Source: Candidatus Omnitrophica bacterium UBA6253
Lineage (GTDB): Bacteria > Omnitrophota > Gorgyraeia > Gygaellales > Profunditerraquicolaceae
Direction: 5' to 3'
Assembly: GCA_002441245.1 (NCBI GenBank)
Contig: DJVP01000011.1
Coordinates: 53,295-117,294, forward strand
DNA length: 64,000 nt
Of the stretch, positions 13,831-28,282 are shown piece after piece. Made by a program: the position numbers and the translations under genes. The notes beneath the pieces are model-generated. The model was not told the DNA's origin, did not search any database, and was given only the letters and a program-made list of their open reading frames with translations. The number at the start of each line of letters is the position of its first letter. Position 1 is the first letter of the stretch.

Positions 13831-14393
13831 AGATTGGCATCTTAGGCGGAACTTTTAATCCGGTGCACATCGGCCATTTGATTCTGGCAGAGGAGGCAAG
13901 AGAGAAATTAGGGCTGGATAAGATTATCTTTATTCCTACAGCCTTGCCGCCGCACAAGGATAATTTAAATATTGCTCCGGCGGATAAAAGGCTAAAAATG
14001 TTAAAGTTGGCCATAAGGGGCAACCGGCACTTTGCAGTTTCGGATATTGAAGTTAAACGCATGGGCCGTTCTTATACGATTGATACATTGAAAGAATTGA
14101 AGTGCAGATACAGCCGTGATGAGCTTTATTTTATTATTGGTTCTGACCTGCTTAAATATTTAAATGAGTGGAAGGATTTAAGCGAAATAACCAAGATGGT
14201 AAAATTTGTAGTTGCAACGCGGCCGGGTTACCCTCTTGAGCAGATACCGCATTACATGCAGACTTTAGCTATCCGAGCAGTAGATGTTTCAGGTTTTGAA
14301 GTGCGGCAGGCAGTGGCGAAGAATAAGTCATTCGGTTACCTGGTGACAGATAAGGTTTTTGACTATATCAAGAAAAGCAAGCTCTATAAGTAG
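13827..14393 (+). CDS. nadD: Nicotinate-nucleotide adenylyltransferase
   Basis: MKIGILGGTFNPVHIGHL carries the (H/T)xGH nucleotidyltransferase motif. The TAG stop at 14391-14393 lies inside the first repeat module. Confidence 0.85.
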   Translation: MKIGILGGTFNPVHIGHLILAEEAREKLGLDKIIFIPTALPPHKDNLNIAPADKRLKMLKLAIRGNRHFAVSDIEVKRMGRSYTIDTLKELKCRYSRDELYFIIGSDLLKYLNEWKDLSEITKMVKFVVATRPGYPLEQIPHYMQTLAIRAVDVSGFEVRQAVAKNKSFGYLVTDKVFDYIKKSKLYK

Positions 14394-14548
14394 ACAGTCT
14401 ATATAATTATTTGATAATAGATGAGTTATGAAACAAATACATGTAAGAGAGAGGAACATAATAAAATAAGAAGTTGTTTTAGTTATTTTGAATCAAAATA
14501 TTTGTTTTATAAATAATTGGTTTGCAAGATGTTACATACACTGTCTAC
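14390..14548. repeat. REPIN-like inverted doublet of the GTAGAC-W-GTCTAC module; it fills the whole nadD-rpe intergenic region.
   Basis: The left arm at 14390-14402 is GTAGACAGTCTAT. The right arm at 14537-14548 is TACACTGTCTAC. Both arms align over ~50 nt with the other module copies (AATATTTGTTTTRTAAC ... TTACGTAGACTGTCTAC). Confidence 0.6.
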
Positions 14549-14549
14549 T

Positions 14550-15197
14550 ATGATAAAGATAGCGCCATCAATATTATCGGCTGATTTTAGTAATCTTGCG
14601 CTTGAGCTTAAAAAGATTGAACGTGCGGGAGCGGATTTAGTCCATGTTGATATAATGGACGGGCATTTCGTGCCGAATATTACAATCGGTCCGGTAGTCG
14701 TAAAATATATACGCAGTTCGACCAGGCTTCCTCTGGATGTGCATTTGATGATTGAAAATCCTGCTAAATATATAGGCGCCTTTATCAACGCCGGAAGCGA
14801 TATGATTACTGTGCATATTGAGGTTGTAGCCTTAAAAGAATTGGCAGCTATTGCCAGGGTGTTAAAGAAAAACGGGATAAAACTGGGGATTTCGTTAAAT
14901 CCGGCAACCCCTTTATCCAGGATTAAGAAAGCCTTGCCGCTGGTCGATTTTGTTTTGGTGATGTCGGTTAACCCCGGATTCGGCGGACAGGCCTTTATTC
15001 CGTCAGCGTTAAATAAAATACGCCAGCTTCGCGCAATCTTTAAAAAAGATATCGCCGTAGACGGAGGGATTAATAATGTTACCGGCAAGCAGGTAAGGCA
15101 GGCAGGGGCAAATATCCTTGCCGCAGGTTCGTATATTTTTGGGGCAAAGAATACAAAAAAAGCAATTAACAGTTTAAGAAAGGACGAGACTCGATGA
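14550..15197 (+). CDS. rpe: Ribulose-phosphate 3-epimerase
   Basis: MIKIAPSILSADFSNL...VHVDIMDGHFVPN...GG. The likely true start ATG at 14550 sits 2 nt after the repeat. The track ORF starts at 14517, inside the repeat. Confidence 0.85.
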   Translation: MIKIAPSILSADFSNLALELKKIERAGADLVHVDIMDGHFVPNITIGPVVVKYIRSSTRLPLDVHLMIENPAKYIGAFINAGSDMITVHIEVVALKELAAIARVLKKNGIKLGISLNPATPLSRIKKALPLVDFVLVMSVNPGFGGQAFIPSALNKIRQLRAIFKKDIAVDGGINNVTGKQVRQAGANILAAGSYIFGAKNTKKAINSLRKDETR

Positions 15198-16585
15198 GCA
15201 ATGCAGTTTCACAAATCAAATTCGGCACCGACGGTTGGAGGGCGATTATCGCAGATACTTATACTTTGGAAAACGTAAGGATTTTGAGCCAGGCAGTGGC
15301 GGATTACCTGGGCAGCGGCAAGAAAGTTGGGATTGGATATGATACGCGTTTCATGTCCGCTAAATTTGCCGAGGCAGCTGCAATAGTATTAAAGAATAAC
15401 GGTATGGAGGTTGTCCTTTCTGACAGGCCCACGCCTACGCCGGCATTAAGTTTTGTTGTAAAGTCGCGTAAGCTGGACTTAGGGATTATGATTACCGCTT
15501 CGCATAACCCGGCAGAGTACAATGGTTTTAAAATTAAGAATTCCGCTGGCGGCGGAGCTAGCCAGGAGTTAACGCGGGAGGTTGAAGGTTTACTTGGCAA
15601 GAGCCCGGTAAAAGATGCAACTTTGCTTGAGCCGATTAAGGCCGTGGATATCACTAAGGATTATATAAAGTTTATCCGCAATTATGTTGATTTAAAGAAG
15701 ATCAAAAATAAAAAGTTTAAAGTCTTGGTTGATTCTATGTATGGCTCCGGAGACAGCTTCATTGCTCAGGTACTTAAGGGTACAAGCATAAAACTGGAGT
15801 TTATGCGCAATACGATCAATCCTTCTTTTGGCGGAGGCAGGCCTGAGCCGGTGGAAGAAAACCTGAAAGAATTAAAGGAACGAGTAAAAAAGGAGAAGTT
15901 TGATTTAGGTATTGCTTTAGACGGCGATGCCGACAGGATAGCCGCGGTTGCACCCGGTGGAGTATTTATCCACCCACAGAAGATATTAGGGTTGTTGGCT
16001 TTGCATCTAAACCAGGACAGGCATTGGAGCGGCGGCTTGGTCAAGACAATTTGCGGTACGACGATGATGGATAATATCGCAAAATTCCTGGGGATTAAAC
16101 TTTATGAAACTCCCGTAGGCTTCAAATACATCTCAAATCTCATGGAGACTGAAGATATCGTTGCCGGAGGAGAAGAAGCTGGCGGTATGGGTGTAAAGGG
16201 CTATATCCCTGAACGCGATGGGACTATGGCAGGGCTTTTGCTGATTGAAATGATGGTTTATCGCAACAAGAATATGCTGAAGATTTTAAACGAGGCTGAA
16301 AAATCGTTTGGTAAATATTATTATGTGCGTCAGGATTTGCATTTAACTAAACGTGTTGAGCCAAGAAAAGAAAGTTTGCCATCTGAATTATTAGGCAAAA
16401 AGGTTGTGGATGTCAAAGATTACGATGGCATAAAACTTATCTGTGAAGACCAGAGCTGGCTGATGTTCCGCAGCTCGGGGACTGAGCCGATTATGCGCAC
16501 CTACGCTGAGGCAAAGAGCCTCCTGCGGGCAAATAAGCTGCTTGCGTTGGGAAAGGAAATAATTTTGAAAGATGTACAGATTTAG
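15194..16585 (+). CDS. Phosphomannomutase/phosphoglucomutase (alpha-D-phosphohexomutase)
   Basis: The active-site loop ITASHNPAEYNGFK (phospho-Ser) and the GDGDADR metal-binding loop are both present. Confidence 0.85.
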   Translation: MSNAVSQIKFGTDGWRAIIADTYTLENVRILSQAVADYLGSGKKVGIGYDTRFMSAKFAEAAAIVLKNNGMEVVLSDRPTPTPALSFVVKSRKLDLGIMITASHNPAEYNGFKIKNSAGGGASQELTREVEGLLGKSPVKDATLLEPIKAVDITKDYIKFIRNYVDLKKIKNKKFKVLVDSMYGSGDSFIAQVLKGTSIKLEFMRNTINPSFGGGRPEPVEENLKELKERVKKEKFDLGIALDGDADRIAAVAPGGVFIHPQKILGLLALHLNQDRHWSGGLVKTICGTTMMDNIAKFLGIKLYETPVGFKYISNLMETEDIVAGGEEAGGMGVKGYIPERDGTMAGLLLIEMMVYRNKNMLKILNEAEKSFGKYYYVRQDLHLTKRVEPRKESLPSELLGKKVVDVKDYDGIKLICEDQSWLMFRSSGTEPIMRTYAEAKSLLRANKLLALGKEIILKDVQI

Positions 16586-17159
16586 CCGGTTTGTATTGCT
16601 GATAATTTTGAAATTATTTTTCCTTTTTGAAGTTAAGGGCAGGGAAAATATTCCTAAGGAAGGCGGATTTATCTTGGCGGCTAACCACGTCAGCTACCTT
16701 GACCCTATAGCCGTAGGCGCAGCCTGCCCGAGGACAGTGCATTTTATGGCCCGGGATAATTTATTCTTTAAGCCGTTTCTTAAATCATGGCTTAAGGCAG
16801 TTGGTGTTATCCCGCTTAAAAGAAACGCCGCGGATTTATCGGCGATTAAGACAGGATTAAGGATTGTGCATAAGGCAGGGGCATTAGCGTTATTCCCTGA
16901 AGGCACGCGAAGGACAAAAGAAAATATGTATTTAAACCCTGAGCCGGGAGTAGGGTTTTTGGCGGCAAAGGGAGGTGTGCCGGTGATTCCAGCTTTTGTT
17001 TCCGGCACATATAAAGCAATGCCGAGGCAGGCGCGGTCACTGCATTTAACAAAAATATCCGTGTACTTCGGAGAAGAAATTCATATAGAAAGGGGGAGGT
17101 CTTATCAGGAAATTTCGCATCTGATAATGGCTAATATCAAGCAATTATCACTTAATTAG
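16572..17159 (+). CDS. plsC: 1-acyl-sn-glycerol-3-phosphate acyltransferase
   Basis: HX4D motif AANHVSYLDP and FPEGTRR motif. Confidence 0.75.
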   Translation: MYRFSRFVLLIILKLFFLFEVKGRENIPKEGGFILAANHVSYLDPIAVGAACPRTVHFMARDNLFFKPFLKSWLKAVGVIPLKRNAADLSAIKTGLRIVHKAGALALFPEGTRRTKENMYLNPEPGVGFLAAKGGVPVIPAFVSGTYKAMPRQARSLHLTKISVYFGEEIHIERGRSYQEISHLIMANIKQLSLN

Positions 17160-17210
17160 TTATTTAAAACTAAAAAATCAAAATCTAATAAAGAAAGGAA
17201 GTAATTTAAA

Positions 17211-18755
17211 ATGTCAAGCATGACAAGAGAAGAATTAGAGCAGATGTATAATCAAAGCATTAAAGTTTTAAAAGAAGGCCAGGTAGTTACCGGAAAAATT
17301 GTGGGGATTAAGAGCAAGGAAGTTTTAGTGGATGTGGGTTTTAAATCCGAAGGGATTGTTCCGATTACGGAATTCAGCTCCGGAGATTTAGAGACTGGCA
17401 AGGAGATGGAGTTTTTGCTTGAGACTATGGAAAATGACGCCGGGGTAATGACCTTGTCACGCGAAAAGGCCATGCGTATGCAGGGTTGGGATAAGATTGT
17501 CAAGTTGTCTAATGAAGGCACTTTAGTTGAAGGTAAGCCGGTAAAGAAGGTTAAAGGCGGATTCCTGGTTGATATTATGGGAATCGAAGGGTTCTTGCCC
17601 AGTTCGCTTTCCTCCTTTCGTAATATTCCGGACAAGGATATATTGTATAAGATGTTTAAGTTTAAGATTGTTAAGGTGAATAATCTTCGCCGTAGTATTA
17701 TTGTCAGCCGCCGCGAAGCAGTGCAGGCAGACAGGGATGTGGCCAAGGGCAAGATTTGGGGAGAATTAAAGATCGGCAATATCTATCCTGGGTTAGTTAA
17801 AGCGATTACCGATTTCGGCGCTTTTATTGATCTAGGCGGGGTAGACGGCCTGTTGCATATTACGGATATGTCCTGGTCAAAGATCAGCCATCCGAGCGAG
17901 ATTGTGGCTATCGGGGATAAGATTGAGATCATGGTTTTAAATATGGATCAGGCATCAGGCAAGGTTTCTTTGGGCCTCAAACAGAGGCTTGCTGACCCAT
18001 GGCAGGATATCGGCGAGAAATTCAGTGTTGGAGCAAAGGTAAAAGGTAAGGTAGTTAACATACTGCCTTACGGAGTTTTTGTGGAGTTGGAAAAAGGGAT
18101 TGAAGGCTTAATCCATGTTTCCGAGATCTCCTGGACTAAACGCGTGAATAATCCGGGCGAGATGTTTGCCGTCGGAGATATACTGGAAACTCAGATTCTA
18201 AGCGTGGAAAAAGAATCCCGAAGGATATCCTTGAGTTTAAAACAGTTGGAGCAGAACCCTTGGACTGAAGCCGAAGCTAAATATCCGGTAGGCGCAAAGG
18301 TATCCGGTAAAGTCCGCGGCTTCACTGATTACGGTGCATTTGTCGAGTTGGATTCTAACCTTGAGGGGATGATCCATGTGTCTGACCTTTCCTGGACCAA
18401 GAGGATAGGTCATCCGCAGGATGTATTAAAGAAAGGGCAGAAGATTGATGTCACTGTACTTTCTGTTGATGCTACCAACCGCAGGATTGCTTTAGGATTA
18501 AAGCAGTTGCAGGATAACCCCTGGTCAAAGATAGCTGAGAAGTATCCTCTGGATACTGTATTGGAAGCTGAGGTGTCCAGCCTGACGGAGTTTGGCGTGT
18601 TTGCTAAGTTAGATGATGAACTGGAAGGCTTGATTTACTCTAGTGAAATCGAGAAAGAAACAGTTGCCAATTTGAAACCCGGAGATAAAATAAAGGTAAA
18701 GGTAATCAAGGTGGATGTGGAGCAGGCTAAGATCGGCCTGACTGCCCGTTTATAA
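17211..18755 (+). CDS. rpsA: 30S ribosomal protein S1 (multiple S1 domains)
   Basis: 514 aa with repeated S1 motifs (G.V..I.DFGAFVDL, GL.HISE). Confidence 0.9.
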
Positions 18756-19921
18756 TGGATATAAGTAAACAAATAGAGACAATTAAAAGGGGCGCTGCGG
18801 AGATAATCTCTGAGGGGGAGTTGTATAAGAAACTCGACCAGAGTATTAAAACCAAGCGCCCCTTAAAAATCAAGGCCGGTTTTGACCCTACTGCCCCGGA
18901 TCTGCATTTAGGTCATACCGTGCTTTTGAGGAAGCTGCGCCAGTTCCAGGATTTAGGGCATGAGGTTTATTTTCTGATCGGCGATTTTACCGGCCAAATC
19001 GGCGATCCCAGCGGTAGATCGGAAATCCGCAAGCAGCTTTCAAAATCAGAGGTTGTTAAGAACGCCCAGACCTATAAAAAGCAAGTGGCCAAGATCCTTG
19101 ATACCTCAAAACTAAGAATAGTTTTTAATAGTAAGTGGTTTGAAAAAATGTCGGTTGTAGAAATGCTAAAACTTACTACTTATTCTACGGTTTCCCAAAT
19201 GCTTGCCCGCGACGATTTTAAAAAGCGTTATGCAAAAGGAGAGAATATCTCTATCCTGGAATTTATTTATCCTTTGATGCAGGGGTATGATTCAGTTGTG
19301 CTTGAGGCTGATGTGGAACTTGGGGGGACTGACCAAATCTTTAATCTGCTGGTTGGCCGCGAATTACAAAAAGATTTTAACCAGGCTCAGCAGGTTGTGC
19401 TCACCATGCCGTTATTGGAAGGAACTGACGGCGTGCAGAAGATGAGTAAAACTTACGGCAACTATGTTGGCATCAATGAGCCGGCAAGCGATATATTCGG
19501 CAAGATTATGTCAATCTCCGACGAGTTGATGTTTAAATATTATGAGCTGCTTACTGATGAAGATTTAAATTCAGTTAGAAGAATGCATCCTAAAGAGGCC
19601 AAAGTAAATTTAGCCAAGATTATCATTACCCAGTATCACTCTGCAGAAGCGGCGGAAAAAGAAGCGCAGGAGTTTGCCCGAGTATTTTCCCAAAAAGAGA
19701 CGCCTGCGGATATGCCGGTTTTTAAAACTGACGGCGAGAAAACAATCCTGGTTATTCTTGCTGAAAGTAAACTGGTTGCCAGCGGCAATGAGGCGCGCAG
19801 GCTGATTAAACAGGGGGCAGTCAGTTTTAATAATCTAAAAATAGAAAAAGATGATTTTGTTCCGAATGAACCCGGCATCTTGAAAGCCGGCTCCCGCAGA
19901 TTCCTGAAGCTTATTTTGTAG
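18755..19921 (+). CDS. tyrS: Tyrosine--tRNA ligase
   Basis: Class I HIGH motif (PDLHLGH), KMSKT motif and a C-terminal S4-like domain. The TAG stop at 19919-19921 lies inside the GTAGAC of the repeat. Confidence 0.9.
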
Positions 19922-20764
19922 ACAGTCTACGTAACTATATATTCCCCAGCCATATCTGTAAGAAATATTTCTATTTTTAAAATAAACTTCGTTAGATTTA
20001 CCCATCTCCTACGTCAATTATGATAGAAGGAGGGGAAAATTATGCCATCGTATGCGCGCAAGCATCAGCTTCAACAGTCATTAGCGTATCATGCGTTTAA
20101 CCGAAGTAATGGACGAAAGGTAATTTTTCAAGAACCGGGGGATTTTGATCGTTTTAAGACTTTACTTTACGAGTATGGTTTTAAGTTTGATGCAAAAATA
20201 TACCATTGGGTGATTATGCCGAATCATTACCATCTTGTGGTCGAATTTAATTTACCTGAGTTAATTTCGAAATTTATGGCAGGATTGCATCGGGCATATA
20301 GCCATTATTATCATAATCAATATAACTCGGTAGGTTTTTTATGGCAAGGCAGGTTTAAATTACAGCCGATACAAAAAGATTTATACTTGAAAAATTGCGG
20401 CAGGTATGTGGAGAGGAATCCGGTGCGCGCGGGAATGGTCAAAGAGGCCTGTGAATATGCGCATAGTAGCGCGCGGTTTTATTGTTTAGGGCAGGAAGAT
20501 GGTGTAACGCAAGTCAGTTGCGATTTTGAAAATTTTGGAAAAGAAGCAACTGGGCGCAGGGCAGTTTATAAAGAATTCCTGAGGGCTTTTGATAGCGAGG
20601 AAGAGGCGTACTTCTCAAACATAGAAATTCCTTGTGGTGACCAAGATTTCCTGCGTAGGCTGGTAAAAGCGAAGGGGCATTATTACCCGAGAAGGCAAGG
20701 TAGGAAGGCTGCAATATTTGTTTTGTAAACGCATATATTTGATATGATTGCATAGACTGTCTAC
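19918..20764. mobile_element. REP-associated tyrosine transposase (RAYT) unit flanked by inverted copies of the GTAGAC-W-GTCTAC module
   Basis: The left end at 19918-19934 is GTAGACAGTCTACGTAA, an inverted module. The right end at 20752-20764 is ATAGACTGTCTAC, a direct module. Between them lies the IS200-like Y1 transposase gene. Confidence 0.7.
20042..20728 (+). CDS. IS200/IS605-like Y1 (HuH) transposase of the REP-associated (RAYT) type
   Basis: HuH motif MPNHYHLVVEF. C-terminal motif YVERNPVRAGMV with the catalytic-Tyr context typical of PF01797 and RAYTs. 228 aa. Confidence 0.8.
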   Translation: MPSYARKHQLQQSLAYHAFNRSNGRKVIFQEPGDFDRFKTLLYEYGFKFDAKIYHWVIMPNHYHLVVEFNLPELISKFMAGLHRAYSHYYHNQYNSVGFLWQGRFKLQPIQKDLYLKNCGRYVERNPVRAGMVKEACEYAHSSARFYCLGQEDGVTQVSCDFENFGKEATGRRAVYKEFLRAFDSEEEAYFSNIEIPCGDQDFLRRLVKAKGHYYPRRQGRKAAIFVL

Positions 20765-20771
20765 AGATTTG

Positions 20772-20780
20772 TGGTATAAT
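20772..20780 (+). promoter_or_regulatory. Extended -10 (TGGTATAAT) just downstream of the right REP end, 8 nt before the SemiSWEET ATG
   Basis: TGnTATAAT pattern. There is no obvious -35 and it is very close to the ATG, so the transcript may be leaderless. Confidence 0.3.
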
Positions 20781-20788
20781 TATTAATT

Positions 20789-21064
20789 ATGCTTTGGCAT
20801 TTGATTGGCGCGATGGCCGCCACCTTAACCATGTTTTCTTTTATTCCGCAGATAGCCAGGTCTTTAAGGACTAAATCTGTAAAAGACGTCAGCCCGATTA
20901 CCTTATTCCAGCTTTCTGCCGGTGTTTTACTCTGGATGATCTATGGTATCGCGCGCAAGGATGTGATAATTATCGGCGCGAATCTGATAACTTTTATAAG
21001 CCTGGCAGTGCTTATTTTCTTGTATTTTAAATATAAAAAGGTGGATGTTTCTTTTAAGAAATAA
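20789..21064 (+). CDS. SemiSWEET (PQ-loop/MtN3 family) sugar transporter
   Basis: 91 aa with 3 TM helices and the PQ motif (FSFIPQIARSLRTKSVKDVS). It is close in sequence to characterised bacterial SemiSWEETs. Confidence 0.75.
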   Translation: MLWHLIGAMAATLTMFSFIPQIARSLRTKSVKDVSPITLFQLSAGVLLWMIYGIARKDVIIIGANLITFISLAVLIFLYFKYKKVDVSFKK

Positions 21065-21065
21065 C

Positions 21066-21114
21066 ATTTCTTTTATAAGTATCTATTGCATAACGAATTA
21101 CGTAGACTGTCTAC
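21066..21114 (+). repeat. Single direct-orientation repeat module ending in TTACGTAGACTGTCTAC at 21098-21114
   Basis: Aligns with the modules at 23811, 24970 and 28283 (..CATTTCTTTTATAAG..TAACGAATTACGTAGACTGTCTAC). It sits 27 nt upstream of the rmlA ATG. Confidence 0.6.
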
Positions 21115-21140
21115 AAGAGCTACAAGAGCAGGGGGGGTGA

Positions 21141-22007
21141 ATGAAAGGCATAATTCTGGCTGGTGGCAAGGCAACGCGTCTTTATCCTATAACTAAAGGT
21201 GTCTGTAAGCAGATGCTGCCGATTTATGATAAGCCGATGATCTATTATCCTTTATCAGTATTAATGCTGGCAGGTATACGGGAAATTCTGGTTATCTCTA
21301 CTCCCAAAGATACACCAAGATTTAAAGATTTATTGGGGGATGGCTCCAGCTTAGGGATTAAATTATCTTACTCTGTCCAACTTGAACCGAAAGGAATTGC
21401 CCAGAGTTTTGTGATTGCTGAAGATTTTATCGGCCGCGATAACGCCTGTCTTATCCTGGGAGATAATATTTTTTACGGTTATAATTTAAGCGAGCTCTTG
21501 CAGCAATCAGCCAGGATTAAGGATGGGGCGGTGATCTTTGGTTATTATGTCAAGGACCCTGAGCGTTATGGCGTGCTTGAGTTTAATAAGAAATGCAAGG
21601 TTACCTCGATTAAAGAAAAACCTATAAAGCCCAAATCTAACTGGGCGGTGGCGGGTTTGTATTTTTATGATAATAATGTGGTAAAGATTGCCAAGAATAT
21701 CAAGCCCTCTGCAAGGGGGGAGCTGGAGATCACTTCGGTAAATAACGAATACATCAAAAGAGGCAAACTCAGGGCGGAATTTCTCGGCCGTGGGCATGCC
21801 TGGCTTGATACCGGTACCTATGAATCGCTTATTGACGCATCGGTTTTTATTAAAACGATAGAAGACAGGCAGGGGCTTAAGATCGGCTGTATTGAAGAGG
21901 TGGCCTACCGTATGGGTTATATTAATAAAACACAATTGCTAAAGCTTGCCGGCCAGATACCGACCAGCTACGGCGAATACTTGAAGGATTTACTTAAAAA
22001 TGGATAA
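21141..22007 (+). CDS. rmlA: Glucose-1-phosphate thymidylyltransferase
   Basis: [18 protein letters not shown]...[11 protein letters not shown] is the RmlA signature. A G7 tract lies at 21131-21137 in the RBS region. Confidence 0.9.
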
Positions 22008-22821
22008 AAACATTTTAATTTTGGGAAAAGGGTTTATCGGCGAAAGGCTGCAAAAAGAGTTTGATTGCCCAATTGACGGCTCAATGATAAATTGTTTTAG
22101 CGACGCCGAGAAACTGGCCAAGAAATATGCCCCTAAAATAATCATAAATTGTATCGGCATTACCGGCAGGCACAATGTCGATGACTGTGAATTAGAGAAG
22201 GATGCGACTCTATTGGCAAACAGTTTTATCCCGGTAATTCTGGCTGAAGTTTGCCTGCGCAATAACATTAAGCTTGTGCATATAAGCAGCGGGTGTATTT
22301 TTAATTACGACTATAAGAAAAATGTATCGATAAAAGAAAATAGCCAGGATTATTTCTTCGGGTTGTTCTATAGCCGCAGCAAGATCTATTCGGAAAGGGC
22401 GCTTGATACGCTTAGCCGGGATTATAATATACTTATTGCCAGGATCCGCATACCCCTGCTTAATGCCAGGCATCCTAAGAACGTGTTAGATAAGCTTATA
22501 AAATACAAGAAAATAATCGATATTGCTAATTCCATAACTTATATACCTGATTTTATCCGGGCAATTAAACATTTGATAAAGATTGACGCCCGGGGGGTGT
22601 ATAATGTAGTAAATAAGGGCGGCTTGCGTTATCCGAGGCTTATGCGGGTTTATCAAAAATACGCCCCGGATTTTAAATTCAAAGTGATTGCCTTAAAGAA
22701 ATTAGGCCTGGCCAGGACTAACCTTATTTTGTCCACAAGCAAGCTTGAGAAAACAGGTTTTAAGGTCAGGAATATCAACTCAATCCTAGAAGAATGCGTA
22801 AAAGAATACCTAAAATCTTAG
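22000..22821 (+). CDS. NAD(P)-dependent sugar-nucleotide reductase, RmlD-like (dTDP-4-dehydro-6-deoxyhexose reductase candidate)
   Basis: 273 aa. N-terminal [13 protein letters not shown] Rossmann motif and a short-chain SDR YxxxK-like catalytic region. It sits between rmlA and rmlB. No rmlC was seen. Confidence 0.45.
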
Positions 22822-23786
22822 TTACCGGCGGGGCGGGTTTTATCGGCAGTGCCTTTGTCAGATTGCTGGTTAAAAACGGGATATCCCCTGTAGTTGTTGA
22901 CAAGCTTACCTATGCCGGAGACCTTAAGCGCCTTGAGGAGGTAATGGGCAAATTTAAATTCTATAAAACCGATATCTGCAGCAAAAAAGGGATCGAGGCT
23001 GTTTTTGCTAAAGAGAAACCGGCTGTCGCAGTTCATTTTGCCGCTGAAAGCCATGTTGACCGCAGTATCCATGATGCTACTCCGTTTGTAGAGACTAATA
23101 TTAAGGGGACGCAGGTACTTCTTGACGCCAGCCGCAAACATAATATAAAGAAATTTATTCTAATCTCTACTGATGAAGTCTATGGAGAGATCGCCAATGG
23201 CAGGTTTAATGAAAATTCTCCGATTAAACCTAACAGCCCTTACGCCGCATCTAAGGCAGCGGCAGACCTTCTGGTGCAGGCGTATATTAGGACAAATAAT
23301 TTCCCTGCAATAATTATCCGGCCGTCAAATAATTACGGCCCGTGGCAATATCCGGAGAAACTTATCCCGCTTGCTATATTAAGAATATTAGGGGATGGTA
23401 AGGTACCGGTTTATGGCAAGGGATTAAATGTGCGCGAATGGCTTTATGTTGATGACTGTGTGCGAGGCATTATGATGATTATGCGCAAGGGTAAAATCGG
23501 AGAGACGTATAACTTAGGCAGCGCTTGCGAGAGTAAAAACATTGACACAATCAAATTATTGCTAAAAACCCTTGGTGTTGGCCATGACAGGTTTGAGTTC
23601 GTAAAAGACCGCTTAGGCCATGATATAAGGTACAGCCTTAATTCAAGAAAGATTGCCAAGGGGCTTGACTGGAAGCCGGGAGTTAAGCTTAGCCAAGGGC
23701 TTAAGCTCACAGTGGCTTGGTCGCTTAAGCATAAAACTTGGCTTAAGAGTAAGCTAGGCGATATTAATAAGCTATATAATAAATAG
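22794..23786 (+). CDS. rmlB: dTDP-glucose 4,6-dehydratase
   Basis: [16 protein letters not shown]... catalytic YAASKAAADLLV(Q)AY and DEVYG. Confidence 0.85.
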   Translation: MRKRIPKILVTGGAGFIGSAFVRLLVKNGISPVVVDKLTYAGDLKRLEEVMGKFKFYKTDICSKKGIEAVFAKEKPAVAVHFAAESHVDRSIHDATPFVETNIKGTQVLLDASRKHNIKKFILISTDEVYGEIANGRFNENSPIKPNSPYAASKAAADLLVQAYIRTNNFPAIIIRPSNNYGPWQYPEKLIPLAILRILGDGKVPVYGKGLNVREWLYVDDCVRGIMMIMRKGKIGETYNLGSACESKNIDTIKLLLKTLGVGHDRFEFVKDRLGHDIRYSLNSRKIAKGLDWKPGVKLSQGLKLTVAWSLKHKTWLKSKLGDINKLYNK

Positions 23787-23807
23787 AACCCCCTTTTAAT
23801 TTTAAAA

Positions 23808-23864
23808 GCTGTAGTATTTCTTTTGTAACTATTTATCTATAATGGAATTACGTATACTGTCTAC
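23808..23864 (+). repeat. Single direct repeat module, ...TTTGTAAC..TATAAT..TTACGTATACTGTCTAC, ending 4 nt before the ATG of the next gene
   Basis: GTAGTATTTCTTTTGTAACTATTTATCTATAATGGAATTACGTATACTGTCTAC. The TATAAT box is at 23837-23842. Confidence 0.6.
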
Positions 23865-23867
23865 TAT

Positions 23868-24935
23868 ATGGCGATTGTCATAGTTACAGGTTCCTGCGGG
23901 TTAATCGGCTCTGAAACTGTGAGTTTTTTTGCGGAAAAAGGCTTTGATATCGTCGGTATCGATAATAATATGCGCAAAAGTTTTTTTGGCGCTGACGGTT
24001 CAATCCTTTGGAATAAAAAACGCCTGCAAAAATTATATAAAAACTACCGGCATTATTCTGTAGATATCCGTGACCAGGGCAAAATCAATTCAATATTCAA
24101 GAAGTATAATAAAGATATCGCTTTAATTGTGCATGCCGCGGCCCAGCCATCCCATGATTGGGCGGCAAGAGAGCCGGCAATTGACTTTGGGATTAATGCC
24201 CAGGGCACGCTGGTTATGCTCGAGGCCTTGCGTAAATTATCCCCCCGCTCAGTTTTTATTTTTGCCTCAACGAATAAAGTCTATGGCGATACCCCTAACC
24301 GGCTTCCCTTAATAGAAAAGGAAAAACGTTTCGAGATCTCATTTGACCACAAATATTTCAAAGGTATTGATGAAACAATGAGCATTGACAACTGCCTGCA
24401 TTCGGTTTTCGGCGCCTCAAAGGTTGCCGCGGATATTATGACACAGGAGTATGGAAAGTATTTCCATCTTAAAACCGGAGTGTTTAGAGGGGGATGCCTT
24501 ACCGGGCCGGCTCATTCCGGCGCTGAATTACATGGGTTTTTATCATATATGGTTAAATGCTGCGTGACAAAACGCAAATATAAAATTTACGGTTATAAAG
24601 GCAAACAGGTCAGGGATAATATACACTCTTTTGATATGGTAAGTGCTTTTTATCATTATTTCCAGAGTCCCCGTTGCGGAGAAGTTTATAATATAGGCGG
24701 AGGCAGATTTGCCAATCTCTCGGTTATGGAAGCAATCGAGATGTGCGAAAAACTAAGCGGCGAAAAGTTTGATTATGAATATATTGATACTAACCGCATC
24801 GGCGACCACATTTGGTGGATCAGCGATGTATCTAAGTTTAAGGCGCATTATCCTGATTGGCAGTATAAGTTCGGCATAGAAGAAACTCTTCGCCAGATTG
24901 TAGACAGTGTACGTAATTCTCTTAAATCTAAATAG
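23868..24935 (+). CDS. NAD-dependent epimerase/dehydratase family protein (CDP-paratose-2-epimerase-like extended SDR)
   Basis: [15 protein letters not shown]...[15 protein letters not shown]. The last 12 codons overlap an inverted repeat module (GTAGACAGTGTACGTAA at 24900-24916). Confidence 0.7.
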
Positions 24936-25026
24936 TTAGAAAACAAATTTTTATCTGAATTAAAATACAGGTATAGTATTTCTTATATAACCTCTTATTT
25001 TTGATATAATTACGTAGACTGTCTAC
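24900..25026. repeat. REPIN-like inverted doublet: an inverted module at 24900-24957 and a direct module at 24970-25026 with TGATATAAT at 25002-25010
   Basis: The outer dyads are GTAGACAGTGTAC at 24900-24912 and GTAGACTGTCTAC at 25014-25026. The inner boxes AAATTTGTTTTCTAAC and GTATTTCTTATATAACCTCTT are conserved. Confidence 0.6.
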
Positions 25027-25033
25027 AAATCAA

Positions 25034-25402
25034 ATGCGGAAGACGATATTGATAATAGAAGACGATCCCCTAAATATGAGGTTGAGCGTTGATTTGCTTG
25101 AATTAAACGGTTTTAATACTCTAAGTTGTGAAGATGGCTGCAGCGCTCTTGAAACCCTAAAGAATACTATCCCCGACCTTATTCTGCTTGATATAAACAT
25201 GCCGAAGATGAATGGTTTTGAAGTTTATAAGAAAATAAGAGAAGATGACCGGCTAGATCAGGTTAAGGTAATTGCCATGTCTGGATCGGTGATGAAAGAA
25301 GATGAGCGAAGGATAGTTGCTGCCGGTTTTAATGATTTTGTGCCCAAGCCCATTGATATAAAGGGATTAGTAGGCAAGCTAAAAGGTTATTTATCTGTAT
25401 GA
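25034..25402 (+). CDS. Response regulator, receiver domain only (CheY-like)
   Basis: 122 aa with acidic pocket IIEDD, phospho-Asp LLDINMPKMNG and the conserved K in PKPI. Confidence 0.8.
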   Translation: MRKTILIIEDDPLNMRLSVDLLELNGFNTLSCEDGCSALETLKNTIPDLILLDINMPKMNGFEVYKKIREDDRLDQVKVIAMSGSVMKEDERRIVAAGFNDFVPKPIDIKGLVGKLKGYLSV

Positions 25403-26523
25403 AGGAATGCATGGAAGTAGAATATCGCGAGCTTGTAGAAAATGCTAATAGCATTATCCTGCGCATGGATATGAAAGGCAACCTTACCTTTTTTAATAGA
25501 TACGCGCAGGAATTCTTCGGTTATAGCCAAGAGGAGATTTTGGGGAAAAGCGTGATTGGCACTATAGTTGCCCCTACCGATTCATCCGGACGGGACCTTA
25601 AGGCGATGATTGATGATATAGTTTCCCATCCATTACGTTATGTTGAAAATAAAAATGAGAATATGCTTCGTAACGGCGAGAGGGTGTGGATAGCCTGGAC
25701 TAATAAAGCCATACTTGATAAAGATGGCCGCGTAGGAGGGGTATTTAGTATCGGTAACAATATAACCAAACTTAAACAAGCCGAAGAGGAAATATTAAAG
25801 GCAAAAGAGGCTGCAGAAAGCGCCAATAAAACCAAAAGTGCATTTCTTGCCAATATGTCGCATGAGCTAAGGACGCCGCTTAATGCGATTATCGGGTTTT
25901 CTGAACTGGTAAAAGATGAAAGCGTTGGGGCCCTTAATGGGAAACAAAAAGAATATCTCAATTATGTTTGGGAAAGCGGCAAGCACCTGCTTTCATTGAT
26001 AAATGAGGTACTTGATTTGTCGAAAGTCGAAGCAGGAAAAATGGAGCTGGAGCTGACCGAATTTGACCTAAAAGAACTTTTAAAAAAGAGCCTTATGTTT
26101 ATATCGGAAAAAGCAATGAAGCAGGAGATCACGCTTTTGACCGATATTGAAGAAGGCGTGGGAATTATTAAAGCTGATGAGAGAAAAATAAAGCAAGTAG
26201 TTTTTAATTTGCTTTCTAACGCTATGAAATTTACTCCTAAGGGGGGTAAGGTTAGTATTCAGGCAAAGATTGCAGGAGAAAATGAAGTTTTAATTTGTGT
26301 GTGGGATACAGGTATTGGGGTAGAAGCCAAGGATAGCCAAAAAATATTTTCTGAATTTGAGCAAATATCCAGTGAATATTCGCGTCAATATGCCGGGACT
26401 GGTTTGGGCATGCCTTTGAGTAAAAAATTTATTGAGTTGCATGGCGGCAAGATGTGGTTTGAAAGCGAGGGAAAGAGTAAGGGTACATATTTTTATTTTA
26501 CATTACCGTCTAAGATAGGCTAA
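25399..26523 (+). CDS. Cytoplasmic PAS-domain sensor histidine kinase
   Basis: A PAS fold follows a coiled region. H-box MSHELRTPLNAI. An N-box and G1/G2 HATPase_c follow (NLLSNAMKFTPKGG, GTGLGMPL). No TM segment. Confidence 0.8.
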   Translation: MKECMEVEYRELVENANSIILRMDMKGNLTFFNRYAQEFFGYSQEEILGKSVIGTIVAPTDSSGRDLKAMIDDIVSHPLRYVENKNENMLRNGERVWIAWTNKAILDKDGRVGGVFSIGNNITKLKQAEEEILKAKEAAESANKTKSAFLANMSHELRTPLNAIIGFSELVKDESVGALNGKQKEYLNYVWESGKHLLSLINEVLDLSKVEAGKMELELTEFDLKELLKKSLMFISEKAMKQEITLLTDIEEGVGIIKADERKIKQVVFNLLSNAMKFTPKGGKVSIQAKIAGENEVLICVWDTGIGVEAKDSQKIFSEFEQISSEYSRQYAGTGLGMPLSKKFIELHGGKMWFESEGKSKGTYFYFTLPSKIG

Positions 26524-26537
26524 CGAAAGGAGCAGAT

Positions 26538-26906
26538 ATGGCGAAGATTTTAATTGTGGATGATGATGAGATAATGCTTAAGCTCTATTCTGAGTTTTTA
26601 TCAAAGGAGGGTTTTGAAGTCCTTACTGCCGGCAATGCGGATAAGGGGTTTGATTTAGCTGCTTCTTGCCTGCCTGACCTTATCCTTTTAGATGTTATGA
26701 TGCCCGGAGTTGATGGAGCAGAGGCGCATGAGCGCTTGTCTAAAGATGCAAGAACTAGCGGCATTAAATTGGTTTTTTTGACCTCCCTGGTAAAGGCGGA
26801 GGAAGTAGCGGCTAACGAAGGGAATATCGGCGGGTTGGATTATATATCAAAATCCACTCCCAAAGAAGAGTTCATTAAAAGAATTAAAGAAATTTTAAGA
26901 TCGTAG
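26538..26906 (+). CDS. Response regulator, receiver domain only
   Basis: ILIVDDDEIM, LLDVMMPGVDG, and a conserved S/T and K. The TAG stop at 26904-26906 lies inside the repeat GTAGAC. Confidence 0.75.
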   Translation: MAKILIVDDDEIMLKLYSEFLSKEGFEVLTAGNADKGFDLAASCLPDLILLDVMMPGVDGAEAHERLSKDARTSGIKLVFLTSLVKAEEVAANEGNIGGLDYISKSTPKEEFIKRIKEILRS

Positions 26907-26960
26907 ACAGTTTACGTAATTTCTTTAAAAGTAGCAGGTTACAAAACAAATATTTATAAA
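26903..26960 (-). repeat. Single inverted repeat module (GTAGACAGTTTACGTAA ... GTTACAAAACAAATATT) between the response-regulator stop and the epimerase start
   Basis: Its reverse complement aligns base-for-base with the module at 28283 (AATATTTGTTTTGTAACCT...AATTACGTAAACTGTCTAC). Confidence 0.6.
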
Positions 26961-26963
26961 AAT

Positions 26964-28001
26964 ATGAAATATAATAATCTCTTGGTTGTCGGCGGGGCAG
27001 GGTTCATCGGCAGCAACCTGGCGGTCTATTTTAAAAGCAAATACCCGATACTTAAGGTTTACGCATTGGATAATCTTGTCCGCAGGGGAAGCGAATTTAA
27101 TCTGCCGAGGCTTAAAGAAAACAACGTTAAGTTTATCCGCGGGGATGTCAGGCGGCCCAAAGACTTGGAATTGAAATTTGATATAGATTTGATATTGGAT
27201 TGTTCTGCTGAGTCGTCGGTGTTGGCAGGTTATGAAAATCCATCTTACGTTATTGATACAAACCTAAACGGCACTGTTAATTGCCTTGAGCTGTGCCGCA
27301 AGCGCAAGGCAGGGATGATTTTTCTTTCCACAAGCAGAGTTTATCCTTATAAAAAAATAAACGCAATCAGCCGCCGGGAATCAAAGAGCAGGTTTGAGTG
27401 GAAGCTTTTCTCCGGTATTGATACGGATTTTTCTCTAACCGGGCCAAAGACTTTGTATGGCGCAACTAAACTGGCTTCGGAATTTATCCTGCAGGAGTAT
27501 ATTGCCGCGTACGGGATTAAAGCGGTTGTTAATCGCTGTGGGGTGGTTGCCGGGCCATGGCAGTTTGGCAAGATTGACCAAGGAGTGTTTACTTACTGGA
27601 TGCTGGCTCATTATTTCAAAAGGCCGCTTAAATATATCGGTTTTGGCGGCCGGGGTAAACAGGTCCGTGACCTTTTGCACGTTGACGACCTTTGCCGTTT
27701 GATCGACCTGCAGGTAAGCGGTCTTTCTAGATTAAGCGGAAATACTTATAATGTCGGCGGCTCAAGAGAGATAAGCCTTTCTCTGTTGGAAGCTACCGCT
27801 TTTTGCCAACAGATTACCGGAAATAAGATTAATGTTGGGTGCGATTTGCGTGAGCGTCCGGGCGATATCGCTATATACCTTACAGATAATAAAAAAGTTA
27901 CCCGGCAGCTGAAATGGAAACCGCAGAAGCAGGTTTCGGAGATCCTGAATGATATCTTTAACTGGGTTAAGAGTAATGAGGCTAAGCTTCGAAAACTATA
28001 A
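26964..28001 (+). CDS. NAD-dependent epimerase/dehydratase family protein (extended SDR)
   Basis: LLVVGGAGFIGSNLAVYF...YGATKLASEFILQEY. Confidence 0.7.
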   Translation: MKYNNLLVVGGAGFIGSNLAVYFKSKYPILKVYALDNLVRRGSEFNLPRLKENNVKFIRGDVRRPKDLELKFDIDLILDCSAESSVLAGYENPSYVIDTNLNGTVNCLELCRKRKAGMIFLSTSRVYPYKKINAISRRESKSRFEWKLFSGIDTDFSLTGPKTLYGATKLASEFILQEYIAAYGIKAVVNRCGVVAGPWQFGKIDQGVFTYWMLAHYFKRPLKYIGFGGRGKQVRDLLHVDDLCRLIDLQVSGLSRLSGNTYNVGGSREISLSLLEATAFCQQITGNKINVGCDLRERPGDIAIYLTDNKKVTRQLKWKPQKQVSEILNDIFNWVKSNEAKLRKL

Positions 28002-28002
28002 T

Positions 28003-28060
28003 ATAGACAGTTTACGTAACTTTATGGAATTATAATAGTTGTAAAACAAATATTACCGAA
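28003..28060 (-). repeat. Inverted repeat module (ATAGACAGTTTACGTAAC ... GTAAAACAAATATT), the left arm of a 331-bp doublet
   Basis: Its reverse complement is AATATTTGTTTTACAACTATTATAATTCCATAAAGTTACGTAAACTGTCTAT. Confidence 0.55.
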
Positions 28061-28097
28061 TTGAGCGCGGTTAGCTTTCTATAATACAGGAGGTGGC

Positions 28098-28262: not shown

Positions 28263-28282
28263 GGGGTTACATGTAAAGTTGA

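Follow-up and report, generated by a model that had tools for sequence, protein, structure and literature searches.

A Y1 transposase gene between inverted copies of a dispersed 52-nt module: a probable REPtron/TIRtron-type system in Omnitrophota

Introduction

The locus described here raises the question of what kind of system is formed by a lone Y1 transposase gene and the short repeat that encloses it and recurs between the neighbouring genes. A sequence-only reading of the 64-kb stretch of Omnitrophota DNA that we analysed (the window) had taken the gene for a RAYT (REP-associated tyrosine transposase) flanked by inverted REP-like ends, with a cognate REP/REPIN population around it, in an AT-rich lineage. 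At 39% G+C, the window proved only moderately AT-rich. REPs are imperfect palindromes of 20-40 nt that form a stable stem-loop with 5′ GT[AG]G at its foot, and the repeats of RAYT/REPtron systems are extragenic and typically number more than 100 per genome. To our knowledge, RAYT/REPIN systems have been studied almost wholly in Proteobacteria and to some extent in Cyanobacteria and Bacteroidetes, and the Y1 enzymes characterised to date recognise hairpins. The phylum Omnitrophota is uncultivated and related to the PVC group, and its genomes are small and densely packed; our literature search found no paper linking them with RAYT, REPIN or TIRYT.

We conclude that the locus probably represents a REPtron/TIRtron-type system, in which a single-copy, mostly vertically inherited Y1 transposase gene lies between inverted modules and is accompanied by a non-autonomous population of intergenic doublets. 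This kind of system is already known (RAYT/REPIN or TIRYT/TIR), and the Omnitrophota example is new.

Results

The transposase and its relatives

The ORF at 20042-20728 (+) encodes a 228-aa Y1/HUH tyrosine transposase, as had been proposed from its HuH and Y1 motifs. The protein scored 57 bits against PF01797 (Pfam) and contains NHYH at residues 61-64, LWQGRF at 100-105 (WQ at 101-102) and YVERNP at 122-127. The last motif fits Y-x3-NP, the signature of class 2 among Y1 proteins (PMC6006769). The best PDB match, by sequence as well as by fold (fold E 2e-7), was E. coli TnpA-REP (4er8), and the next structures were IS608 TnpA and ISDra2 TnpA. The assignment as a RAYT held with respect to the Y1/HUH family, the Y-x3-NP signature and the closest structure, but not with respect to the NCBIfam RAYT equivalog NF047646, on which the protein scored 60.2 bits, under the cut-off of 80. 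Plasmid relatives of the transposase scored 72-78 bits on the same model. The score on NF033573 (IS200/IS605) was 20.5 bits, with a cut-off of 55.

The AF2 model had a pLDDT of 86, and the C-terminal tail (residues ~145-220) was predicted to be folded, with pLDDT of 78-95. The tail aligned with plasmid relatives of 230-250 aa and had no fold match in the PDB. Pfam gave no match outside residues 12-126 at E ≤ 0.1, and a C-terminal HTH-like domain as in TIRYTs (similarity to Bac_DnaA_C, HTH_23 or HTH_28) was found neither with Pfam nor in the PDB fold search. By its sequence, the transposase belongs to a long-tailed (~230-250 aa), RAYT/TIRYT-like group of class-2 Y1 proteins.

The flanks of its full-length relatives carry GGGGACAG inverted repeats of the TIRYT type in some cases and canonical GTAG REPs in others. 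On a P. aeruginosa plasmid, a homologue with 30% identity, which aligns over residues 17-221, lies between inverted repeats that contain GGGGACAGATCTAT (GGGGACAG type), and canonical GTAG REPs follow the gene of a Skermanella plasmid relative (33% identical). The residues that contact GTAG in E. coli were considered as a test of recognition and discarded as uninformative, because they are absent here and equally absent in a relative with canonical GTAG REPs.

The transposase is under purifying selection, with dN/dS of 0.07-0.11 at dS of 0.7-2.4. Its tree did not agree cleanly with the identities of S1 and PGM. The window contains a single copy of the gene, and no tnpB is present among the window ORFs within the transposase unit.

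The ends, leader and spacer of the unit

The boundaries placed earlier at 19918-19934 and 20752-20764 were found at exactly these positions. The flanks are indeed inverted copies of one module, whose length, given as ~55 bp, was measured as 52 nt. The unit contains the following features besides the gene:

19918-19969 (+): left terminal module, located by profile and two-box pattern, with Box A GTAGACAGTCTACGTAA (19918-19934) and the Box B variant TCTGTAAGAAATATT
19978-20041 (+): conserved leader with TAAAATAA (19978-19985), GTTAGATTT (19991-19999) and a hairpin (20001-20035)
20713-20764 (−): right terminal module, inverted, with ATAGACTGTCTAC at 20752-20764
20765-20788 (+): conserved spacer TGTGGTATAATTATTAATT, from the right module to the ATG of the PQ-loop gene

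A module profile built from the window copies detected the flanks at 19914-19976 (+) with E 2e-12 and at 20706-20767 (−) with E 1.7e-13. Aligned directly, they are identical at 32 of 52 positions, mostly within the two boxes. The stop codon of tyrS (19919-19921) is T2A3G4 of the left module, and the transposase gene takes its final five codons and its own stop from Box B of the right module (AATATTTGTTTTGTAA). The left-end variant is kept in L001, L004, L005 and ten more genomes. The outer-to-outer length of the unit, 842-847 bp, recurs in ten other genomes, and inverted modules flank the gene in the window, in L001, L004, L005 and L007, and in ten blocks of the genome scan described below. 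The L007 transposase is 62% identical and has a different neighbourhood; it still lies between inverted modules. The spacer reads as an extended −10-like box that was found at filled sites and is missing from the empty site.

The leader hairpin pairs a pyrimidine-rich anti-SD with the Shine-Dalgarno sequence AGGAGGGG (20028-20035), enclosing the loop CGTCAATTAT. In an alignment of 15 homologous leaders, the hairpin has seven pairs, five of them with compensatory changes, and 85.7% of the alignment cells are paired, compared with 51-76% when the partners were slid. The fold in the window has −14.3 kcal/mol (z −1.9). The alignment shows a conserved hairpin that would sequester the transposase Shine-Dalgarno, a type of control for which IS200 provides the precedent (PMC4513863). 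The leader also precedes a 34%-identical Y1 gene in L030.

The 52-nt module

The module consists of Box A, (G/A)TAGACAGTnTAyGTAA, and Box B, TTAcAAAAsAAATA, with variable sequence between them. The dyad had been described as beginning with GTAG; this applies to ~75% of 204 copies, while ~25% have A as the first base and begin with ATAG. GTAG sits within a weak 13-nt dyad and not at the foot of a hairpin. Position 10 of the dyad varies freely while its partner G4 is fixed, the pair 4-10 being G-C in 30% of copies, and positions 1 and 13 showed no covariation (p 0.19). On its own, a module has a fold energy of −2.3 to −2.8 kcal/mol (z −0.7 to −1.6), which is not significant. The weak fold, the free position 10 and the lack of 1/13 covariation rule out the module as a REP-type hairpin. 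Accordingly, the proposed REP/REPIN population stands as far as dispersed, intergenic, REPIN-like doublets are concerned, but the module is not a classical REP.

The module tip (GTAGACAG / GTAGACAGTCTAC) matches six of the eight positions of GGGGWSAS, and the motif as defined is absent. To judge from the letters, the tip GTAGACAG may represent an intermediate step in evolution, with the GGGGACAG tip of the TIRYT inverted repeats on one side and the GTAG tag of REPs on the other. A Box A variant, AAGACGCT, occurs in L009.

We also rejected the module as a promoter or terminator: promoter-like sites numbered 52 vs 38 ± 7 and terminator-like sites 16 vs 15.6, with no enrichment and no systematic coincidence. 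TAGACA is similar to a −35 box, and a hybrid promoter-like site was predicted once, at 20753-20780. No Rfam family matched the modules, and no tRNA targets were found. The sole Rfam match, a weak one to snoZ196 (E 0.5), falls within the transposase ORF and was put down to chance.

Copies in the window

Allowing two mismatches or fewer, the 13-mer of the module occurs at 11 sites in the window, vs 0.4 expected. All of them fall at 14390-28333, which bears out the earlier statement that the module is scattered over the neighbouring 14 kb. The two-box pattern found the same 11 sites and no others, with 0 expected. Apart from the terminal modules of the unit, the copies are:

14390-14548 (no strand): doublet of 159 nt, tail to tail, between a CTP-transferase-like gene and ribulose-phosphate 3-epimerase
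21063-21114 (−): single module between the PQ-loop gene and rfbA
23813-23864 (−): single module between rfbB and a 355-aa epimerase gene, whose ATG is 3 nt past the module end
24900-25026 (no strand): doublet of 127 nt, through the left arm of which the final 12 codons of the epimerase gene are read
26903-26954 (+): single module, at the TAG of which the second response-regulator gene stops
28003-28333 (no strand): inverted module pair (28003-28054, +; 28282-28333, −) with 227 nt between

The gene upstream of the doublet at 14390-14548 uses the TAG of the doublet as its stop, and the next gene's ATG is 1 nt past the doublet end. Orthologous copies are present in nine other genomes; L004 and L005, like the window, carry a doublet at this site, which is empty in the outgroup L001. 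As ssDNA, the doublet at 24900-25026 folds at −16.3 kcal/mol (z −4.3). A 56-aa ORF with a Shine-Dalgarno sequence lies between the inverted modules at 28003-28333, and L004 and L005 have a 53-aa ORF in the corresponding position.

The module population across genomes

The counts from our reference-genome scan are lower bounds. The window's genome was sampled over 64 kb, and the MAGs are incomplete. Modules were found well beyond the window, on many contigs of at least 26 Omnitrophota(-type) MAGs and up to 500 kb from the transposase gene (400-500 kb on a JBAZUE contig). The matches listed comprised at least 115 blocks and at least 196 modules by profile. Lower bounds of 16-21 modules were obtained for single genomes, the highest count being at least 21 on seven contigs. 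The transposase gene was present in 12 of the at least 115 blocks, and never in two blocks from one genome among the matches listed. As regards the idea of one RAYT per genome, among the matches listed at most one was seen in each of at least 26 MAGs, which are incomplete. Outside Omnitrophota, six single pattern matches (Alkalibacterium, Pelosinus, Ruminococcus, Bacteroidales, Pedobacter and Pseudovibrio) were rejected as chance; they had no profile-detectable module, and ~17 chance matches were estimated for the collection from base frequencies alone.

In the doublets, two modules lie tail to tail, with a total length of 119-121 nt in 25 of 38 short doublets. As ssDNA, doublets reach fold energies of −15 to −19.5 kcal/mol (z −4.3 to −5.7). 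In 23 of 38 doublets, vs 12 expected, the free position 10 is matched between the two arms. Whole doublets, including the spacer, are 70-85% similar between loci of one genome, and the sample contained no paralogous doublets more than 85% identical within a genome. Orthologous module boxes are conserved although the synonymous sites of the neighbouring genes are saturated. From these two observations, we infer that the population is old, with slow turnover and constrained boxes. The orientation of arm types (A/B) relative to gene direction was dropped from the analysis, as many of the informative doublets were orthologous, going back to a single old insertion 5′ of the S1 gene, and hence not independent.

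Insertion sites and mobility

The transposase gene lies between tyrS and the PQ-loop gene in 14 genomes, and the synonymous divergence of these flanking genes is saturated. In two genomes the gene is found elsewhere, and one of them, JAKLQX, keeps an empty tyrS/PQ site; the unit has thus changed place at least once. Other neighbourhoods were observed in L007, L009, L078 and L036. Relocated units have a rearranged left end, with the module in direct orientation, and the leader is lost in L078.

Comparison of empty and filled sites revealed seamless insertion without target duplication, and no target-site duplication was visible at 38 doublets. Module copies differ in presence between close relatives, again with seamless junctions. 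In the module flank, T is preferred at −1 and −2, and G is avoided. Insertion falls just 5′ of ATGA stop/start overlaps, and both neighbouring ORFs stay intact because G-TAG of the element takes the place of A-TGA. The module supplies the stop in 57 of the 75 cases in which a long ORF reads into it, and none of the doublets examined lies inside a long ORF. The distance from the outer module end to the next start codon is broadly distributed, without a sharp peak. We saw no near-identical paralogues that would support current activity of the population; given the relocation, strict domestication is not established either.

Discussion

Competing explanations

The association between the protein and the module is positional and phylogenetic, as read from the sequences. 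The 845-bp unit might be an ordinary autonomous Y1 insertion sequence, the doublets its MITE-like deletion derivatives, and the single copy a result of low activity and fragmented MAGs; no domestication would then be involved. The sharp, inverted ends and constant length of the unit would suit such an element, as would the other neighbourhoods in L007, L009, L078 and L036, the empty JAKLQX site and the relatives on plasmids. Moreover, many database homologues sit on 1-3 kb contigs, as if repeats break assemblies. Nevertheless, we consider an ordinary insertion sequence unlikely, since the same tyrS/PQ site is occupied in 14 genomes despite saturated flanking divergence, no genome has two copies among the matches listed, tnpB is absent, and the protein has Y-x3-NP instead of the Y-x3-Q of IS200. 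The rearranged left end of the relocated copies also fits recombination between modules better than transposition. Alternatively, the modules could mark the boundaries of exchangeable blocks, with the Y1 enzyme or host recombination shuffling accessory and polysaccharide genes downstream of tyrS in an integron-like manner. The content between modules does vary: L001 has a BrnT/BrnA-like pair and an HTH gene, around which there is a module pair, L004 has AbiEii and ORF6N, and the response regulator, PAS kinase and response regulator at 25034-26906 of the window are absent between the same epimerase genes in L004. Single modules in this region lie mostly in one orientation (11 vs 3), but the bias is not significant once orthologues are removed (~7 vs 3). 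Given that most doublets elsewhere are gene-free and sit in housekeeping operons, that no circular cassette or recombination junction was seen, and that rfb-type regions usually vary in gene content whatever their repeats, block exchange appears very unlikely.

A host intergenic signal of regulatory or structural nature (operator, promoter, terminator, or RNA processing or stabilising element), for which the flanking of the transposase would be secondary, is in our view highly improbable. It would explain why the boxes are kept at orthologous sites despite saturated neighbouring synonymous sites and why modules lie exactly at gene ends and starts, supplying stop codons; the −35-like TAGACA and the hybrid promoter-like site also point in this direction. 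However, promoter-like and terminator-like sites are neither enriched nor systematically located at modules, Rfam gave no match, presence varies between close relatives with seamless junctions, and the same module pair brackets the transposase in the unrelated neighbourhood of L007. We also considered a domesticated "punctuation and shuffling" device, whose modules would insert at ATGA overlaps, give stops and sometimes promoters, be selected at orthologous sites, and serve as breakpoints for the exchange of accessory, defence and polysaccharide blocks downstream of tyrS. Such a device, which we regard as decidedly unlikely, would go beyond a tolerated selfish system and would, on the basis of a Y1 enzyme, correspond in function to an integron array. 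A REPtron/TIRtron-type system remains the probable explanation.

Possible mechanism

If the enzyme of such a REPtron/TIRtron-type system works like TnpA-REP and IS608 TnpA, its binding target would be the folded doublet, or Box A together with Box B, in DNA that is single-stranded at the replication fork. The enzyme would then cut at the outer boundary beside (G/A)TAGAC, form a 5′-phosphotyrosine link at Y122 and rejoin the strand, so that doublets could be copied or moved without footprints. The leader hairpin would hold translation of the transposase low. A cleavage and strand-transfer (CST) assay has been described (PMC8266576).

Significance

The current picture of how RAYT/REPIN-type systems work is unchanged by our results. 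The repeat described here differs both from the classical REP hairpin and from the classical inverted repeat of TIRYTs, and the sequence of its tip lies between the GGGG and GTAG tags; if the tip were truly an intermediate, it would bear on the origin of REPs. Empty and filled sites occur naturally and document insertion at stop/start overlaps without a footprint, and the long-lived orthologous doublets lend themselves to the question of whether selection maintains elements of this sort. The module is also a phylum-specific repeat that breaks metagenome assemblies, and a possible marker.

Comparison with known systems

The unit shares its catalytic fold with the IS200/IS605 family (IS200, IS608, ISDra2 and derivatives associated with palindromes), together with seamless donor and target junctions and the lack of target-site duplication; the 5′-leader hairpin that would sequester the Shine-Dalgarno sequence is a further likeness to IS200 (PMC4513863). 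In contrast to these elements, the protein has Y-x3-NP instead of Y-x3-Q and 228 instead of ~150 aa, the ends are true inverted repeats and not dissimilar subterminal hairpins, tnpB is absent, and the unit is not multicopy (at most one per genome among the matches listed).

REPtrons combine a RAYT (TnpA-REP) with REP and REPIN sequences (Nunvar 2010, PMC2817692; Bertels & Rainey 2011, PMC3116915; Ton-Hoang 2012, PMC3333891). As in REPtrons, the gene for a class-2 Y1/HUH protein with Y-x3-NP lies between inverted repeats that are also dispersed intergenically, and the replicating unit looks like a hairpin-folding doublet. The gene likewise has at most one copy per genome among the matches listed, a conserved chromosomal position and purifying selection. 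The tip reads GTAG in 75% of copies, a likeness of letters whose homology to the GTAG of REPs is unproven. The Omnitrophota repeat differs in being an AT-rich, 52-nt, two-box module that forms no stable hairpin alone; its GTAG is embedded in a weak dyad, and 25% of copies have ATAG instead. At 228 aa and with a folded tail, the protein exceeds the 165 aa of E. coli TnpA-REP and scores under the NF047646 cut-off, and the copies seen number tens (lower bounds) rather than hundreds. The doublets resemble REPINs in that an inverted repeat pair with a short spacer forms a long hairpin and is the conserved unit; unlike in REPINs, no identical "master" copies were seen, the highest identity within a genome being 85% in our sample.

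TIRtrons pair a TIRYT with long terminal inverted repeats, many of which contain GGGGWSAS (Di Nocera 2013, PMC3733652). They share with our system a RAYT-like protein that is long (~230 aa here, ~240 aa in TIRYTs), ends in a C-terminal tail and contains NH[YF]H and W[EQ], flanking inverted repeats of tens of nucleotides, the 3′ one overlapping the gene end, and a moderately abundant repeat family occurring as dimers and clusters. GGGGWSAS itself is absent from the Omnitrophota repeat, whose tip reads like a REP tag, and the doublets differ in their tight length of 119-121 nt and their spread over a phylum-level clade. TIRYT probably corresponds to subclass 2.1 (Quentin 2018, PMC6006769), or group 1 of Bertels. 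No REPs were reported for subclass 2.1 by Quentin et al. (PMC6006769), yet the Skermanella relative has canonical GTAG REPs; in consequence, the boundary between REPtrons and TIRtrons is blurred.

Transposase and flanking modules

The features of the window on which the analysis rests were as follows.

20042-20728, + strand: Y1/HUH transposase ORF, 228 aa, with NHYH (residues 61-64), LWQGRF (100-105) and YVERNP (122-127)
19918-19934: left boundary sequence, GTAGACAGTCTACGTAA
20752-20764: right boundary sequence, ATAGACTGTCTAC
14390, 19918, 24900, 26903, 28003: five modules in one orientation (profile/pattern matches)
14548, 20764, 21114, 23864, 25026, 28333: outer ends of six modules in the other orientation

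The ORF had been read from the sequence as a Y1/HuH protein, and this was borne out by a Pfam match to PF01797 (Y1_Tnp; 57 bits, cut-off 23) together with the NHYH and YVERNP motifs. The NCBI RAYT equivalog model gave only 60 bits, under its cut-off of 80. The nearest solved structure was 4er8, E. coli TnpA-REP, found with the single sequence (E 0.002) and placed first by the family profile (E 7e-5). The AlphaFold model, with 57 homologues as input, was confident (pLDDT 86, pTM 0.84), and a fold search with it again gave 4er8 as the best match (E 2e-7), with the IS608, ISDra2 and IS200 transposases next; in that search, the folded tail (residues ~145-220) had no solved counterpart. The closest proteins (54-100% identity) came from Candidatus Omnitrophota MAGs and metagenomes, within a very large wider family (21,329 representative clusters at E ≤ 1e-3).

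The alignment of all window sites yielded an ungapped 52-nt module, in which Box A, (G/A)TAGACAGTnTAyGTAA, is separated by ~18 variable positions from Box B, gTTAcAAAAsAAATAyt. Both boundaries lay where the sequence-only reading had placed them, and the two modules flanking the ORF are the inverted copies it described, although of 52 nt and not ~55 bp. Their Box A ends point outward, and 32 of 52 positions are identical between them; the ORF runs into the right one, which supplies its last five codons and its stop. The claimed scatter over the neighbouring 14 kb also held: the window contains exactly 11 modules, all within 14390-28333 and all intergenic or overlapping gene ends, whereas the numbers expected by chance are 0.4 for the 13-mer and 0 for the two-box pattern.

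The proposal that the ends are REPs was not established, nor was the GTAG as a canonical recognised tag. The 13-nt dyad folds with -2.3 to -2.8 kcal/mol, no better than shuffled sequence. In 204 copies, dyad position 4 was always G, while its would-be partner, position 10, was C in 30%, G in 42%, T in 24% and A in 4%; module position 1 was G (75%) or A (25%), and no covariation between positions 1 and 13 was detected (p 0.19). The weak fold, the free position 10 and the lack of 1/13 covariation rule out the module as a REP hairpin.

Doublets and the dispersed population

Two modules arranged tail to tail (a doublet) fold strongly as single-stranded DNA, with -15 to -19.5 kcal/mol and z of -4.3 to -5.7. 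The doublet arms agreed at the free position 10 in 23 of 38 cases, with 12 expected, which fits arm-to-arm pairing, a figure that kinship among the copies may inflate.

The two-box pattern, run against reference genomes (one per species), matched in at least 115 eight-kb blocks, which contain at least 196 modules by profile across at least 26 Omnitrophota-type MAGs (one of them labelled Planctomycetales). The main reading holds, namely a gene of the RAYT type whose cognate repeats are dispersed. Among the scan matches listed, the richest genome carried at least 21 modules on 7 contigs, 25 of the 38 short doublets were 119-121 nt long, the gene-bearing unit measured 842-847 bp from outer end to outer end in 10 genomes, and no doublet lay within a long ORF. 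On one 923-kb contig, the gene sits at about 80 kb and modules at 480-584 kb. Paralogous doublets of one genome were 70-85% identical in the matches listed and never more, so no recent burst is visible. Orthologous doublets, at the site that separates ribulose-phosphate 3-epimerase from the CTP-transferase-like gene, kept their boxes over ten genomes, with a 39-nt indel in the central spacer.

Insertion sites and mobility

We compared filled sites with the matching empty sites of related genomes at two places. The doublet at 14390-14548 lies between the CTP-transferase-like and epimerase genes; among the matches listed, the site is also filled in the related loci L004 and L005 and in seven scan genomes. 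It is empty in L001, which S1 and PGM identities place as the outgroup and where the two genes overlap as ...TATAAATGAAG; the window reads ...TATAA|GTAGAC...GTCTACT|ATGA. At the second place, the MAG JAKLQX (L115 ~5270-5280, JAKLQX010000050.1) lacks the whole unit, the counterpart of 19918-20788 in the window, and its tyrS stop overlaps the PQ-loop start as ATTTTATGATC. The JAKLQX gene (80% identity) sits on another contig, L078. There, the left module is direct instead of inverted, and a deletion has removed the leader; the MAG JBAXLM (L036) has the same new gene context.

Both insertions lie directly 5' of an ATGA stop/start overlap. At both, the last sense codon now ends in the first G of the element, a synonymous change (AAA to AAG, TTA to TTG), and the TGA stop gives way to the element's TAG. 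No target duplication was seen at any of the 38 short doublets. An ORF of at least 80 codons reads into the outer end of 75 of 212 modules, stopping at the module TAG in 40 and at the module TAA in 17. Single-strand Y1 transposition of IS608-type elements is footprint-free and makes no duplication. By analogy, the footprint-free insertion observed here would arise by the same mechanism, and the Y1 enzyme most likely mobilises doublets on single-stranded DNA.

We also observed (G)TATAATTATTAATT just before the PQ-loop ATG (20765-20788); it is conserved in every filled site and missing from the empty one. This stretch and the module end jointly score as a promoter-like site of the extended -10 kind (20753-20780), and the downstream gene may have gained a promoter carried in or created by the inserted unit.

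Gene neighbourhood and descent

The gene occupies the same position, downstream of S1 and tyrS and upstream of the PQ-loop gene and rfbA, in three relatives (85%, 81% and 74% identity; contigs of 277-584 kb), and the identical tyrS/PQ adjacency occurs in ten more genomes among the scan matches listed. Its dN/dS was 0.07-0.11 with dS of 0.7-2.4, and synonymous sites of the housekeeping neighbours were saturated or nearly so; the gene is therefore functional and long resident at this site. Strict vertical descent is unproven, because the transposase identities are only partly congruent with those of S1 and PGM. Only 12 of the at least 115 blocks listed contained the gene, never two from one genome. 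Many database copies (L002, L003, L006 and L010 included) lie on 1-3 kb contigs whose own start or end falls within or beside modules, which suggests that the repeats break short-read metagenome assemblies.

In an unrelated neighbourhood, the 62%-identical homologue at locus L007 has recognisable inverted modules on both sides. At L009, a 54%-identical homologue is accompanied by a diverged Box A (AAGACGCTGTTGCTAAC) and a conserved Box B, hinting that enzyme and repeat may co-diverge. At this locus (1377-1690, 2347-2422), two left ends stand in tandem and each has a leader copy, one end being a canonical module and the other carrying the diverged Box A; the diverged right end matches the diverged left end, giving 76-nt inverted repeats. 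The arrangement resembles a snapshot of a switch in repeat specificity.

Leader of the transposase gene

Between the left module and the ATG, we found conserved TAAAATAA, conserved GTTAGATTT and a hairpin:

20001-20035: leader hairpin, pyrimidine tract paired with the Shine-Dalgarno

In 15 homologous leaders, five of the seven hairpin pairs showed compensatory changes, and 85.7% of cells were paired, against 51-76% with the partners slid. Such Shine-Dalgarno sequestration represses the IS200 transposase (PMC4513863). The same leader and hairpin precede a 196-aa Y1 gene of 34% identity in another Omnitrophota MAG (L030; 2800-3400, 4982-5029), flanked by GC-rich inverted repeats, GGGGACGTTCCCC...GGGACGTCCCC. 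Two module-like sequences, nearly identical and with CCCC in front (CCCCTAGACAGTTTACGCAAC...), also lie on its contig (JBDRLG010000012.1; L046 446-493).

Gene blocks between modules

The modules at 25026 and 26903 turn their Box A ends toward a block (25034-26906) of a response regulator, a PAS histidine kinase and a second response regulator. The block is missing from L004, where its two flanking epimerase genes are adjacent; here, a variable gene block is bounded by modules. Relatives carry accessory genes between modules downstream of the transposase (L001 10791-11887; L004 11058-11381 and 17082-20438; L005 10785-11373), including a BrnT toxin gene together with a 76-aa partner, AbiEii and ORF6N. 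In L001, a module pair encloses an HTH gene, and a Zeta-toxin-like gene (13906-14463) lies further downstream, past the last module found there. Single modules downstream of the transposase in relatives were oriented 11 to 3, or ~7 to 3 without orthologues. The inverted modules of the pair 28003-28333 enclose a 56-aa ORF (28097-28267) with a strong Shine-Dalgarno; a search for a family match returned none, and corresponding 53-aa ORFs were called in L004 (16628-16789) and L005 (18973-19134).

The supposition of an especially AT-rich lineage was not established, the window having 39% G+C. The segment 32000-52000 has 29-37% G+C, against 40-46% in the first 30 kb, and is probably horizontally acquired or glycan-related. 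The long ORFs examined, within the interval 11-32 kb of the window, are all on the + strand, and the GC skew is positive over the whole window.

Comparison with known systems

As reported by Quentin et al. (PMC6006769), Y1 proteins split into classes, of which class 2, with Y-x3-NP, is the home of RAYTs. Our ORF (228 aa, NHYH, WQ) best fits their long-tailed subclass 2.1, for which they reported no REPs and which they consider probably equivalent to the TIRYTs of Di Nocera et al. and to group 1 of Bertels (PMC6006769). In the description by Di Nocera et al. (PMC3733652), long inverted repeats flank the TIRYT genes; GGGGWSAS occurs in many of these repeats, and some form moderately abundant families arranged as dimers. 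In the literature searched, we found no paper linking Omnitrophota with these elements.

We checked two plasmid-borne relatives, with alignment over residues 16-221. The P. aeruginosa gene (30% identity) has 37-38-nt inverted repeats containing GGGGACAGATCTAT on both sides. Downstream of the Skermanella gene (L127, 33% identity) lie three canonical REPs, CGTAGGTTGCGCCCGTGGCGCAAC. The module tip, GTAGACAGTCTAC, resembles the P. aeruginosa repeat at 6 of 8 motif positions and bears the tag of the Skermanella REPs. The E. coli GTAG-contact residues are conserved neither in our protein nor in that of Skermanella; their absence is uninformative, because the latter has canonical REPs. The Skermanella relative (250 aa, annotated only as 'transposase') lies beside a MazEF pair on plasmid pTT6-2 of Skermanella sp. 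TT6, with its GTAG-type REPs at L127 1180-1329 (one inverted, two direct); it is an unannotated plasmid REPtron.

Broadly defined, the Omnitrophota system is a RAYT; it comes nearest to the TIRYT type and fits neither named category exactly. It represents a known type of system in an unstudied phylum, and is of most use for its clean, natural sites of insertion and for doublets that have long been conserved.
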